64,000 bases of DNA from Gammaproteobacteria bacterium (GTDB lineage: Bacteria > Pseudomonadota > Gammaproteobacteria > Eutrophobiales > Eutrophobiaceae): NCBI GenBank assembly GCA_965207165.1, contig OZ242265.1:809101-873100 (forward strand). The letters run 5' to 3'. Positions 52,141 through 59,370 of the stretch are shown here, piece by piece. The notes beneath the pieces are model-generated. The model did no database searches and was not told the origin of the DNA. It saw only the letters and a program-made list of their open reading frames with translations. The translations under genes were made by a program, and so were the position numbers. The stretch's first letter is position 1. Each line of letters starts with the position of its first letter.

Positions 52141-53559
52141 CTATTGATAGTCCCGCAGTTGGTCAACATCGAACATTTCTTCCGATACACGTTCGTCCCG
52201 GCCTTCCCAATTTGGGTCCATGTATAAGGTTGACATGCGTTTGGTAACGTAGTTATTGACCATGCAGTAACGCCACATGGCATCCCCTTCCGTCGGACGC
52301 CAGGCGCGACTGTCTTCCCAATTCCTGAATTTGTTACCTCTCGGATCTTCCGTGAGGTGGTACTGCATGTAATAGAACTCCTTATCGACCCATGTCCGGC
52401 GCTTGGAATATATGTATTTGCCGGTCTTGTCGATAATATCCAGGATCCATACCGGACGTAATTCCACTTCCAGTGATCTAAAATTGCACTGATCTTCCGT
52501 CAGTACGGCTGAATCATAGATATAACCCACCTCGGGTGAGGTCAGGATAAAGCCTTCTCCGGCCAGCACGTAATCGAACTTGCTTACATCGGTTTTACCC
52601 CAGTATGCACGCCAGTCATCCCAGATCAGTTCCTGCCCTGATGCAATCGGATCCTGTGCATCAGACCCGGTTAAGATGCGGGTGCGGCGCAAACTGGGAA
52701 TAAATACCTTGAAATCATCATCCTTGTCGGCATCGGGATAGCGCTGGCGGACGCCGGCAAGACCGCGAATATCCAGGGGTTCAAGGAAGAATATCGAACC
52801 TCCCTCTATGAAATCCTCTTTGCCGTCTATCTCGCCTAAAGGACCGGTATTTTTTCGATTATGATAATGCCACCACCACAAATCAGCCTTGTATTCGCTG
52901 TCAAGCCGTCCCCCAGCCGTACAGGCGCGCATATGGATAGGCTCAAAGTTCAGTGTATCAGTGTTTACTGAATGAGCCACATACGACCAGTTTAATTCCA
53001 GGCCGTTTTTTGGGTTCAGAAACGGGATGGAAGTGGCTCCAGCACCGGTCATCAATGCGTAACTTCCATCCGGATAAAGCAGTTCGCCATCTTCATTGAT
53101 AACCAGTTCGATCCCTTTCTCCTTCAATTCCTTGGTCCCTGCCAGGTATCCTTTATGCATGTAATAGGTATTGGTGGGAACGATAGTGATTTCGGCAATG
53201 TTGCTCCATGACGATGACAAATGTTCTATGAATTCCAGAGGCATATAATCCGTTAACCAGGGATATTGATCTACATTATCCTTGGTAATTCTAAGGCCCG
53301 GCTTTAATTCTTCCGGCAAATCGGCCTGTTCCATGAGGTCGTACGCATCGTATCCTCTTAATTCTCTCCACTCTGCCGCAAGAGCAATCGCCTCAGGCTT
53401 TGAGATTTCTTCTACCCACCTGGCATGATTGGGATCCCCCGTTGCTGCGGCAAAGGCTTTCCATGCCTCCAATGCCTTGTTTGTTTCAGCATGAATAACC
53501 GGACTGAGAAAAAAGCTGAAAAGACAAATTGTCAGGGTTATGATTTTATTGTTCATCAC
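52141..53559 (-). CDS. DUF1329-family periplasmic protein (LolA-like fold family)
   Basis: Signal peptide (ITLTICLFSFFLSPVIHA), about 470 aa, W/Y-rich pattern. Canonical position downstream of a DUF1302-like barrel gene. Confidence 0.7.
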   Translation of the reverse strand: MMNNKIITLTICLFSFFLSPVIHAETNKALEAWKAFAAATGDPNHARWVEEISKPEAIALAAEWRELRGYDAYDLMEQADLPEELKPGLRITKDNVDQYPWLTDYMPLEFIEHLSSSWSNIAEITIVPTNTYYMHKGYLAGTKELKEKGIELVINEDGELLYPDGSYALMTGAGATSIPFLNPKNGLELNWSYVAHSVNTDTLNFEPIHMRACTAGGRLDSEYKADLWWWHYHNRKNTGPLGEIDGKEDFIEGGSIFFLEPLDIRGLAGVRQRYPDADKDDDFKVFIPSLRRTRILTGSDAQDPIASGQELIWDDWRAYWGKTDVSKFDYVLAGEGFILTSPEVGYIYDSAVLTEDQCNFRSLEVELRPVWILDIIDKTGKYIYSKRRTWVDKEFYYMQYHLTEDPRGNKFRNWEDSRAWRPTEGDAMWRYCMVNNYVTKRMSTLYMDPNWEGRDERVSEEMFDVDQLRDYQ

Positions 53560-53604
53560 GTTTATCCTCCTATGTTCTGGGTCTGTTGCAGATCACAGTT
53601 TTTT

Positions 53605-55599
53605 TTAGAATTGAAATGTCAGCGACAGTTCTACAAAATCGGAATTGTCGAGTAAACCAATCGGCGCATTTTCACCACCATTACCGGCGAAATGCATCCA
53701 TTCCAACCGCGGGCGCCACCTTTTACCGAAGAAATTAAAATCGATCCGTTGCCGGTAATAATGCCCTTTATTGTCAAAATCCCTGATATACAAACCCTCC
53801 AGTACCAGGCGTTGTTGAAACAAGGGAGACTGCCAGAGGAAGGTAATATACTGGTGGTCCTTCGAGACCGTGTCAAAGGCATAAGGGGCCTGTTGCAGCA
53901 ATCCTTCATTGGCGTCAAAGGTGTGAATATTAAAAAATTGAAAACTGGTGAATACCGATTTCTCCTGGGTATCCCAACCAGGCACCCATAGAGGATAGTC
54001 AAAACCAACCATCGTTGACAGGACGTCACTCCGGGTAATGGTTTTGTCTTCGGTTGCAGCCAGTGCCGGGCTACCCGTTTCATCCCTGTTGTTCAGAGGT
54101 AGTGGCAGTACGCCGAACGGAGTATTCAGGGTCCCGATTGCCCCGGGATTCATGTGGCTGCGGTTAAAATATTTGTCGAATTCATAAGCAAATTCCAGAC
54201 GCATGGCCGGCGAAGTTTGTTTTGGGCCGAACTTGAATTCGCTCATGTCCCGGGCAAAGCTGAAACCAATCAGTTTTTGGCGGTGTTGATAATCGAGGTT
54301 GACGATACCATTGACCGAACAGGGCAGTCCGGCGCCCAGGCCGGGCTGTAACGGATCGCCGCATCCGCCCATCGACAAGGTTGTTAACGGGCTTTCAACC
54401 AACGGACCTACGCCGGCTATACCGCGCAGATAGGTAAGGTATCCACCGGTGGGAAATACGCCGCCGAGAGAAGGCCCTAAAAAGCCGGGGGCGCCGTGCA
54501 CTACCGTTTCAACGTCATTAGCAGTTAACGGTACTGTAGCGATAGATGCATCAATATTATTAAATCCGTTACCAACGATAAATGTGCCGCCTTCCAGGGT
54601 CACTGTCGGCAAATCCTGCATACCGTAGAAACCATTGACGGTAAACTGGCCCCCAAGAGAGTCAAACTTCAGACGGGCCGAGTATTCCGCGTCATCAAAA
54701 CCCCAATGGTTGGCTTCCTTGTCACGAATATCGAAGCCAAATCCTACAAAACCTGCTCCTGATACCGGGTCGATCACGTCAGGGAAGGGCAGTCCGAAGA
54801 TGCCCCCTGAGGAAGGATCGCTGGGATTTGGATTATTGACGACAAACTCGCTGTGTCTGACTTCCGGAACGATATTAACTTCAAGAACAGGTCGTCGCAT
54901 CCCCAAGGCTTCAAAAGGTTTGGAAATACCCAGTTTACGAAAGTTAAAATCGGCAGCAACCATGAATGCCGGAATTCGAAGCTCATCAGAATCCCGGAAG
55001 GCAAAGCGCTCGCGCAAGTCCTGCGCGTGCAGAACGTCCAGTAAACGCAAGCCGTCGGACTGTCCCCAGCCGCGCTGGAATTTACCGAGTTTGACTGTAA
55101 AGCGATTTTTCCTGTCGCGGTATTTGAGTGAAAATTCCCGGATGATCTCGTCGGCACTATCGAAATGGCGGATCCCTTTGGAAGATGCACAGAAAGTATC
55201 CGTGGTCGAATTAATGGCGGAACCTGAGCAGTTACCGGTGTTCAGGCGATAGGGCAAACGCCTGTTGAAGTTGCTCAATGAACCGGGGGCAACATCGGTC
55301 GGATCATGCATGCCGCTGCTGCTGATGGTATCCATTCCCGGGGCCCAGTCGCCACGCAGCCAGAAATTCCCGATAAACGTCCATTGCCGGTTTGGTCTCC
55401 ACGATGTTTTTACCTCAGCGAGATAGTTGGTTGGACCGTTTATCGTACCCTGGTTCTCAAGGTCGTAAAGAATCGAACCCCCCTGTTTTAATCGACCGTT
55501 CAGGCTCCAGTCTTTGCTCTTTAAATTGACTGCATACGATTGCCCTGCAATGACAAAGGTCGCAGAAATAAGCAGCAATAAATTCAGTATCTGTTTCAT
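53605..55599 (-). CDS. DUF1302-family outer-membrane beta-barrel protein
   Basis: Signal peptide from the ATG at 55599 (GAGG 9 nt upstream), alternating beta-strand pattern, and the C-terminal OMP signature ...LSLTFQF. Confidence 0.7.
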   Translation of the reverse strand: MKQILNLLLLISATFVIAGQSYAVNLKSKDWSLNGRLKQGGSILYDLENQGTINGPTNYLAEVKTSWRPNRQWTFIGNFWLRGDWAPGMDTISSSGMHDPTDVAPGSLSNFNRRLPYRLNTGNCSGSAINSTTDTFCASSKGIRHFDSADEIIREFSLKYRDRKNRFTVKLGKFQRGWGQSDGLRLLDVLHAQDLRERFAFRDSDELRIPAFMVAADFNFRKLGISKPFEALGMRRPVLEVNIVPEVRHSEFVVNNPNPSDPSSGGIFGLPFPDVIDPVSGAGFVGFGFDIRDKEANHWGFDDAEYSARLKFDSLGGQFTVNGFYGMQDLPTVTLEGGTFIVGNGFNNIDASIATVPLTANDVETVVHGAPGFLGPSLGGVFPTGGYLTYLRGIAGVGPLVESPLTTLSMGGCGDPLQPGLGAGLPCSVNGIVNLDYQHRQKLIGFSFARDMSEFKFGPKQTSPAMRLEFAYEFDKYFNRSHMNPGAIGTLNTPFGVLPLPLNNRDETGSPALAATEDKTITRSDVLSTMVGFDYPLWVPGWDTQEKSVFTSFQFFNIHTFDANEGLLQQAPYAFDTVSKDHQYITFLWQSPLFQQRLVLEGLYIRDFDNKGHYYRQRIDFNFFGKRWRPRLEWMHFAGNGGENAPIGLLDNSDFVELSLTFQF

Positions 55600-59262: not shown

Positions 59263-59355
59263 GACTGAATTTACTCCCCCGATAATTTTTATTATTGCAA
59301 CTAACAGAAGATATATTACGTCCAATATCAGGTTGCTACGTTCCAGAAAACACAC

Positions 59356-59370
59356 GCATTAATTATGCCA
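59356..59370 (-). promoter_or_regulatory. Sigma-54 (-24/-12) promoter TGGCAT-AATTA-ATGC
   Basis: Minus strand reads TTGGCATAATTAATGCG with correct GG-N10-GC spacing. About 95 nt upstream of the BNR gene ATG and divergent from a sigma-54 activator gene. Confidence 0.5.

Follow-up and report, generated by a model that had tools for sequence, protein, structure and literature searches.

Gene organization of the locus

We analyzed a stretch of 64,000 nucleotides (nt), hereafter the window, from contig OZ242265.1 of a Gammaproteobacteria bacterium (assembly GCA_965207165.1), with attention to a cassette of four envelope genes located at the head of an aromatic oxygenase operon. The cassette consisted of a minus-strand run of four consecutive open reading frames (ORFs) at 52141-59370, ahead of a Rieske dioxygenase gene, and encoded, in order of transcription, a beta-propeller, a membrane protein of the RND (resistance-nodulation-division) type, an outer-membrane barrel and a DUF1329 protein. 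An earlier note on this DNA had described the four genes as tightly packed and the Rieske gene as starting 20 nt after the DUF1329 stop, and all of these ORFs and junctions were recovered. The propeller stop overlapped the RND start by 4 nt, gaps of 91 and 48 nt separated RND from barrel and barrel from DUF1329, and 20 nt lay between the DUF1329 stop and the start of the Rieske alpha gene; the alpha and beta genes were 7 nt apart, and the beta gene and a last, glutamine synthetase-like (GS-like) gene 20 nt apart. No convincing terminator was found in any gap of the operon, and terminator and sigma-70 promoter scans inside it gave counts close to the shuffled expectation, which were uninformative. 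Since the next gene after the GS-like gene is convergent, the operon comprises seven genes, the four envelope genes first and then those for Rieske alpha, beta and the GS-like protein, which are probably co-transcribed. For comparison we used 51 genome loci retrieved with a profile of the barrel, together with metagenomic loci from exact-protein look-ups.

The first gene (58084..59262, minus strand) coded for an exported Ycf48-like BNR/Asp-box beta-propeller of 392 residues, which matched PF14870 (PSII_BNR; E 1.3e-23) and the crystal structure of Ycf48 (PDB 2xbg; E 5e-15) and contained four T-x-D-G-G-x-T-W Asp boxes. Its start was assigned to the ATG at 59262, which follows a GGGGGAG ribosome-binding site, and not to the GTG at 59355 that came from the ORF lister, a codon that sits directly after the -12 promoter element (see below). 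The N-terminus was a signal peptide. A lipoprotein was considered and set aside: because the lipobox-like VIGC motif was not conserved in relatives (the Cys is a Tyr in the close relative L005), the propeller is treated as a putative periplasmic protein with an ordinary signal peptide. Residues 234-279 (58402-58563, minus strand) formed a 46-residue insertion rich in Lys, Ala and Glu (ATEAQREEIDRQAAAEEAKAEAKARARAKRRKQQ...), probably helical, and a similar stretch was present in the Cycloclasticus homologue L015.

The second gene (55691..58087, minus strand) coded for an inner-membrane RND protein of the HAE3/MMPL type, 798 residues long. It passed the cut-off of PF03176 (MMPL; E 1.4e-24), and its best NCBIfam match was TIGR00921 (HAE3; E 3.3e-41), under the curated cut-off of that model; a match to ACR_tran was weak (E 2.7e-8) and secondary to MMPL. 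The hydropathy profile showed the usual pattern with two large periplasmic loops, which fits the HAE3/COG1033 type with its approximately 12 membrane helices, and D267, H284 and E735, all within membrane segments, were invariant. The protein also matched distantly the structures of MmpL3, MmpL4 and HpnN, and weakly the NCBIfam models of HpnN, MmpL3 and BstA. A classical tripartite HAE1 pump of the AcrAB-TolC type was rejected as the identity of the cassette, in which no HlyD-type fusion protein and no TolC/OEP family member was found.

The third gene (53605..55599, minus strand) coded for an outer-membrane beta-barrel of 664 residues with a signal peptide and the C-terminus ...LSLTFQF, matching the ...TFQF ending previously read. 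The most likely start, which differs from the one given before, was the ATG at 55599, in consistency with a GAGG ribosome-binding site and with a 664-residue relative. Searched directly against Pfam the barrel gave no match even at E<=10. Because homologues at 50-64% identity carry PF06980 (DUF1302, a name borne by some of them) and 26 of 38 aligned members of the barrel subfamily match this family, we assign the barrel by transitive homology as a putative divergent DUF1302 member. Its AlphaFold2 model was a large beta-barrel (pLDDT 78), for which Foldseek returned only generic porins from the PDB (TM 0.3/0.5), the top matches being 16-18-strand porins; a PDB sequence search gave chance matches only (E ~1). 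A FadL/TodX channel (PF03349), that is, a 14-strand barrel with an N-terminal hatch, was rejected as its identity, given the lack of a PF03349 profile match and Foldseek matches that were porin-like and included no FadL. Nor was there a Pfam match to this family among the selected likely-gene ORFs of at least 150 residues in the window, in agreement with the claim that the locus has no FadL/TodX-type channel.

The fourth gene (52141..53556, minus strand), preceded by an AGGAGG ribosome-binding site, coded for a periplasmic DUF1329 protein of 471 residues with a signal peptide, which matched PF07044 above its cut-off (E 3.8e-19). The AlphaFold2 model (pLDDT 90.6) showed a helical N-terminal domain followed by a C-terminal domain of the LolA superfamily, and Foldseek gave target-normalised TM values of 0.79-0.83 to 4z48 (DUF1329) and 9tp6 (LolA3), the value of 0.79 being that to 4z48. 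The family placements of the earlier note were therefore borne out directly for the propeller, the RND protein and DUF1329, and for the barrel through its homologues and not by a match of its own. Its proposal of one protein for each envelope layer did not stand: of the four proteins, one belongs to the outer membrane, two to the periplasm and one to the inner membrane.

The attached oxygenase

The oxygenase part of the operon began with the Rieske ring-hydroxylating oxygenase alpha subunit (50789..52120, minus strand; Pfam Rieske and Ring_hydroxyl_A), which resembled benzoate and anthranilate dioxygenases in NCBIfam. It was followed by the beta subunit (50179..50781, minus strand; PF00866), whose start at MATPQ was taken from a 200-residue gene call in loci L003 and L004, and by the GS-like enzyme of the arylamine-glutamylating, NpaA1/AtdA1-like type (48680..50158, minus strand), which matched NpaA1 (PDB 8wwu) with E 5.8e-127. 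NpaA1 and AtdA1 glutamylate 1-naphthylamine and aniline, enabling the action of a Rieske dioxygenase (PMC11335346). From the GS-like match to NpaA1 beside Rieske alpha and beta, the oxygenase is assigned to the arylamine (aniline or naphthylamine) dioxygenase type. This pairing led us to reject a toluene dioxygenase as its identity, so that the comparison with toluene operons made in the earlier note fails as to the type of oxygenase.

The classical aniline and 1-naphthylamine clusters (atdA1-A5, tdnQTA1A2B and npaA1-A5) have in common with the present operon the Rieske alpha and beta subunits and the GS-like enzyme (PMC11335346). They differ in that no envelope module has been described for them, whereas the present operon is headed by one, and in that the window operon, with the order alpha, beta, GS-like, which is unusual for an arylamine-dioxygenase set, ends after the GS-like gene and contains neither a GATase-like nor a reductase gene. 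The GATase-like NpaA2 was dispensable in strain JS3066 (PMC11335346), and the electron-transfer partner may be borrowed from the neighbouring monooxygenase cluster (see below).

Promoter and divergent activator

Direct reading of the sequence revealed a sigma-54 -24/-12 box, TGGCATAATTAATGC (59356..59370, minus strand), with the correct GG-N10-GC spacing, 94 nt upstream of the propeller start codon. Transcription is predicted to start at about 59344, which would give a leader of about 82 nt. By itself the loose sigma-54 motif was not significant in the window (5 found against 3.65 expected), and statistical support from the window was consequently dropped. The box is supported instead by its conservation and by its enrichment across loci: TGGCATAATTAATGC and its immediate flanks were invariant in L003, L005 and L006, whose other intergenic DNA was much diverged, and comparable boxes (score of at least 12 of 14, within 300 nt upstream) preceded the propeller gene in 19 of 36 related loci, as compared with 3.2% of control windows taken from the same loci.

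The divergent regulatory region between the box and the next gene (59371..59707) contained conserved A/T-rich islands in a four-way alignment, namely ATACAAGGAGTTA, TTGATTTAATAAAA.TACT.ATCA and ATGATGCA. The second of these resembled an integration host factor (IHF) site, being IHF-like (WATCAA-N4-TTR) with one mismatch; no consensus for an activator site was established. The islands are candidate IHF and upstream activator sites. Beyond them, on the plus strand, lay the gene for a XylR/DmpR-type sigma-54 enhancer-binding protein with an aromatic-sensing N-terminal domain (59708..61393), with the Pfam domains XylR_N, V4R, Sigma54_activat, AAA_lid_14 and HTH_8, and with 600 bits against the NCBIfam model MobR, under its cut-off of 999. 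Both the well-spaced promoter and the divergent activator of the earlier note were thus found, and most likely the adjacent activator switches the operon on when an aromatic effector is present.

Beyond the activator gene were an alcohol dehydrogenase gene and a TmoA-like toluene/benzene monooxygenase cluster that ran off the window, its alpha-subunit gene starting at about 62754 and leaving the window (~62754-64000, plus strand). A sigma-54-like box, TTGGCACGATTCCTGTA, was located at 62605-62621 (plus strand), about 130 nt upstream of the TmoA-like gene, with a perfect -24 element and GT in place of GC at -12. Given this box, the same activator may drive both divergent units.

Distribution and genomic context

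The same arrangement, with about 95% protein identity, was present in one metagenomic contig and in the complete chromosomes of two metagenome-assembled genomes (OZ244905.1 and OZ220696.1). The order propeller-RND-barrel-DUF1329 was retained in 34 of the 35 loci with enough flanking sequence, which spanned Gammaproteobacteria (Cycloclasticus, Porticoccaceae and Halieaceae-like bacteria) and Alphaproteobacteria (Zavarzinia and Robiginitomaculum). Of the 31 loci of at least 15 kb, all from this one barrel subfamily, 26 carried, no more than 10 kb from the cassette, a homologue of at least one aromatic-catabolic protein (TmoA-like diiron monooxygenase, Rieske alpha subunit, extradiol dioxygenase or BphD-type hydrolase); 15 had a XylR-type activator.

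The attached enzymes differed among loci. The TmoA-like gene began about 40 nt after DUF1329 in L036, L037 and L039; PAH (polycyclic aromatic hydrocarbon)-type Rieske genes flanked the cassette on both sides in Cycloclasticus; phenol-hydroxylase and alkyl-aromatic genes accompanied it in Candidatus Seongchinamella; and in L058 the cassette was followed by a complete aniline-dioxygenase cluster (GS-like, GATase, alpha, beta and reductase) and a catechol 2,3-dioxygenase gene. Directly upstream of the cassette in L058 (2434-5424) there were three adjacent tyrosine-recombinase (phage-integrase) genes, an arrangement consistent with a unit carried by a recombinase-trio mobile element.

Two Cycloclasticus loci (L022 and L024, 10001-17270) had two tandem barrel and DUF1329 pairs behind a single propeller and RND pair, so that the barrel and DUF1329 pairs look like exchangeable specificity modules on one engine. 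An extra DUF1329 gene or a divergent LolA-like paralogue, again beside one propeller and RND pair, was also observed in L019 (12115-15034), in L001, L014 and L035 (~4500-5900) and in L016 (13522-14910). A heuristic for outer-membrane barrels (a signal peptide and a C-terminal aromatic residue in a protein free of membrane helices), which picks up 41 of 49 DUF1302 barrels, revealed no further gene of this kind in the window or the flanks of about 47 loci, and the Toluene_X family was absent from the Pfam-annotated loci.

Comparison with known systems

We consider the cassette to be an AmeABCD-type four-part envelope transporter, with a probability of about 0.85. AmeABCD of Castellaniella defragrans 65Phen is the same four-family cassette; its proteins were induced on monoterpenes, and both an ameB transposon mutant and a full ame deletion grew poorly on monoterpene hydrocarbons (PMC6394551). 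The likeness is at the level of families (DUF1302, a LolA-like DUF1329 protein, a COG4447/Ycf48-like propeller and an HAE3 RND protein) and of setting, AmeABCD being substrate-induced and situated in a catabolic island for hydrophobic substrates. The Ame order is barrel, DUF1329, propeller, RND (PMC6394551), of which the order in the window is a circular permutation. The Ame substrates are monoterpenes, used under anoxic conditions, and, unlike Ame, the window cassette has a barrel too divergent for Pfam DUF1302 and is joined, under a sigma-54 promoter, to an oxygenase operon.

The four families also behave as one functional unit in transposon-mutant (RB-TnSeq) fitness data, which cover Sama_1588-1591 of Shewanella and PP_0765/PP_0766 with PP_2018/PP_2019 of P. 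putida. Price et al. reported their cofitness in Shewanella, Kangiella and Pseudomonas and recorded DUF1329 genes within gene clusters for phenanthrene, p-cresol and steroids (bioRxiv 10.1101/072470). In P. putida, mutants affected in any of the four families cannot use Tween 20 and butyl stearate as carbon sources (10.1101/2020.07.04.188060), and AlphaFold-Multimer models gave barrel-DUF1329 and DUF1329-propeller-RND complexes, proposed as a substrate transport system (PMC10866462; PMC13499233). The RB-TnSeq set thus resembles the window cassette in its phenotype on hydrophobic carbon sources and in the modelled complexes, but the Pseudomonas genes are often split into two loci, are under LuxR-type regulation and have fatty-ester or pleiotropic links in place of aromatic oxygenases. 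In a 2026 study a cluster for a porin-like, a DUF1329, a Ycf48-related and an MMPL protein was proposed as the benzene transporter of the anaerobic degrader ORM2a (PMC13101534). This 'nanopod' cluster has four matching families and is highly expressed during aromatic hydrocarbon degradation (PMC13101534), but it belongs to Desulfobacterota, includes a universal stress protein and hypothetical proteins, and shows an Ame-like order without fusion to an oxygenase operon. A DUF1329 deletion in Delftia Cs1-4 impaired growth on phenanthrene, as cited in PMC13101534, and a Zoogloea toluene and phenol cluster also holds DUF1302 and DUF1329.

The FadL channels TodX, TbuX, TmoX, CymD and PadL share with the cassette a proposed role in the entry of aromatics through the outer membrane (PMC11837497) and a position at the operon head. 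They work alone and without energy, whereas the window cassette also has a periplasmic carrier and an RND protein driven by protons, and its barrel is much larger and decorated and has no PF03349 match. In HpnN, MmpL3, BstABC, the Lol system and NPC2-NPC1, an RND protein or membrane extractor trades hydrophobic cargo with a small soluble carrier, and DUF1329 has the LolA-superfamily fold of the Lol carrier. The bacterial lipid RND and Lol examples carry endogenous lipids in the outward direction; delivery of cargo into the membrane is confined to NPC2-NPC1, and none of these systems uses a DUF1302 barrel or a Ycf48-like propeller. Two further candidates were discarded as relatives: AupA/AupB of Marinobacter, AupA being FadL-like and of a different family, and PahS/PahP of Cycloclasticus, which likewise belong to different families, the one being a TonB-dependent receptor and the other a classic substrate-binding protein.

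For no member of this cassette type has a structure been solved or a biochemical mechanism defined (PMC13499233). The earlier note stated that DUF1302 and DUF1329 lack a biochemically defined mechanism; the system as such was already recognised through AmeABCD, cofitness, AlphaFold-Multimer models and the benzene cluster. The cassette type is known, genetically studied and biochemically unresolved, and the window locus is a well-supported new member of it, not a new system; the interpretation of the earlier note is reasonable but already in the literature. What the locus and its relatives add is the fixed permuted order, the wiring to aromatic operons under sigma-54 and a cargo that can be guessed from the attached enzymes.

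Proposed mechanism and direction of transport

The cassette is most likely a substrate-induced trans-envelope shuttle for hydrophobic aromatics, as had been predicted from its layout; such a system fits the folds, with DUF1329 in the LolA superfamily, and the linkage to aromatic catabolism. In the proposed mechanism the DUF1302 barrel would provide a route for the hydrophobic aromatic through the outer membrane, DUF1329 would carry it across the periplasm in its LolA-like hydrophobic domain and would exchange it with the periplasmic domains of the proton-driven HAE3 RND protein, and the Ycf48-like propeller would serve as an RND partner or assembly factor. The contacts of such a barrel-carrier-RND relay would be those suggested by the published models, and an inward RND step would resemble the hand-off from NPC2 to NPC1. 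That the shuttle delivers inward, capturing substrate for catabolism functionally in place of a TodX/TmoX channel, we hold at slightly less than even odds. Uptake is favoured because the cassette heads catabolic operons under a substrate-sensing activator, in the position that todX and tmoX occupy at the head of toluene operons; because barrel and carrier pairs are duplicated behind one RND and propeller pair in Cycloclasticus; because no other outer-membrane barrel gene was detected nearby; and because mutants fail on non-toxic or insoluble substrates, as in P. putida and, according to PMC13101534, in Delftia. A fuller version is put forward more tentatively: an energised import system in which the barrel captures, DUF1329 ferries and the RND protein with the propeller inserts the compound into the inner membrane, which would replace FadL/TodX in a marine clade of aromatic degraders, with pairs swapped or duplicated for specificity. 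The gene content of the loci is consistent with a replacement of FadL/TodX.

Several points weigh against these interpretations. The loci were selected by similarity to the window barrel, so that the context statistics describe one subfamily; the context counts were made without a genome-wide background control, and several loci are closely related to one another. Co-transcription, inducer and substrate at the window locus are predictions only, a dedicated uptake route may be unnecessary for anilines, whose hydrophobicity is only moderate, and the phenotypes in Shewanella and P. stutzeri were pleiotropic (bioRxiv 10.1101/072470). Moreover, every characterised bacterial relative of the RND protein (MmpL3, MmpL4 and HpnN, and the AcrB type) moves cargo outward, and the nearest of them are all exporters; the Lol pathway, HpnN and MmpL3 likewise run from the inner membrane outward. 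The ame deletion, which comes from the only deletion study of this cassette, showed besides its poor growth on monoterpenes a concentration-dependent tolerance defect (loss of tolerance above 5 mM limonene), partial rescue by acetate and more Nile Red accumulation, from which its authors concluded export (PMC6394551). These last points would suit the same machine working outward as a substrate-induced efflux or tolerance valve, in which the RND protein would extract the aromatic or a toxic intermediate from the inner membrane and pass it to DUF1329 for release through the barrel. We regard this as possible but somewhat unlikely, since there are multiple copies of the cassette in Cycloclasticus, whose PAH substrates are barely toxic and dissolve poorly, since the P. 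putida and Delftia mutants mentioned above fail on non-toxic or insoluble substrates, and since it would be wasteful, at low marine concentrations, to export the very compound that the operon is induced to break down. The ttgDEF and sepABC solvent-efflux pumps found by toluene genes, in turn, are each under a repressor of their own and do not form the head of an oxygenase operon.

Export or remodelling of an endogenous envelope lipid or outer-membrane component, switched on along with aromatic catabolism and hardening the envelope against membrane-active substrates, would account for the pleiotropic cofitness from which Price et al. proposed export of a cell-wall component (bioRxiv 10.1101/072470), and for DUF1302 and DUF1329 proteins in outer-membrane vesicles and nanopods of Delftia; HpnN, MmpL3 and BstA, the weak NCBIfam matches of the RND protein, carry endogenous lipids, and the LolA fold normally binds acyl chains. 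It is nevertheless improbable: the subfamily is tightly and repeatedly embedded in differing aromatic operons with the same type of aromatic-sensing activator, and its barrel and DUF1329 pairs are duplicated, both of which suggest a substrate-specific and not a housekeeping cargo. A surface sensor made of the barrel and DUF1329, relaying the presence of substrate without bulk transport, would parallel the outer-membrane receptor and periplasmic binding protein reported for PAH sensing in Cycloclasticus. We judge it very improbable: PahS and PahP belong to other families (see above), the cassette includes neither a histidine kinase nor an anti-sigma partner, effectors are sensed directly by the N-terminal domain of the cytoplasmic XylR-type activator itself, and a sensor leaves the RND engine without a role. 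Finally, PP_0765/PP_0766 of P. putida were first suggested to form a cell-surface esterase or hydrolase, and the mutants fail on fatty esters and not on free fatty acids (10.1101/2020.07.04.188060). For the cassette this has hardly any probability: the folds are those of a LolA-like carrier and a beta-barrel, nothing resembling a hydrolase turned up in the domain and structure searches, the aromatic and arylamine substrates lack an ester bond, and the same authors' later modelling shifted to transport (PMC10866462).

Other features of the window

The G+C content was 45-53% across 48000-64000 and 54-61% in the remaining window; by parts, it was 0.499 in the operon, 0.451 in 59263-64000 and 0.566 in 1-46000. 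The lower values suggest horizontal acquisition of the aromatic-catabolic block as an island, with the cassette as part of it. A tblastn search of DUF1329 against the plasmids in PLSDB gave no match at 1e-10.

A polytopic membrane protein of 428 residues without a Pfam match (45641-46927, minus strand), adjoining a BphD-like hydrolase gene, may be an uncharacterised transporter; its counterpart in L003, at the same position, has 432 residues and also lacks a Pfam match. A second Rieske alpha/beta pair, flanked by genes for an SNF-family sodium symporter and TRAP DctQ/DctM (16482-18277 and 15111-16475, minus strand; 18338-20283, plus strand), is a separate oxygenase unit using conventional inner-membrane transporters. 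At 1-2814 (plus strand) an FtsX/MacB-type permease gene was followed by one for a CrtC-lipocalin/Lipocalin_9 protein, another pairing of a permease with a hydrophobic-ligand-binding fold. Toxin-like genes at 22942-25071 and 28765-29970 (plus strand), unrelated to the cassette, included one for a 709-residue protein with a C-terminal ADP-ribosyltransferase exoenzyme domain (E 2e-6), with an RTX calcium-binding repeat protein nearby.

Significance

The entry of hydrophobic pollutants into Gram-negative bacteria is known only for FadL-type channels, and little is understood of the step past the outer membrane. Cassettes of the DUF1302/DUF1329/Ycf48-like/HAE3 type are widespread and give clear phenotypes when mutated, but there is no agreement on the direction of transport; mechanistically the class is an open problem, although the locus itself would not surprise a specialist. 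The window and its relatives form a sub-clade with a fixed permuted order, wired through sigma-54 to toluene-monooxygenase, PAH-dioxygenase and aniline-dioxygenase operons. No other outer-membrane barrel gene was detected nearby, and the likely cargo can thus be guessed from the attached enzymes, which makes this sub-clade suited to settling the mechanism. If uptake is true, the cassette would be a second, energised route of aromatic uptake, relevant to bioremediation and strain engineering; if efflux is true, it would extend solvent-tolerance systems beyond the HAE1 pumps.

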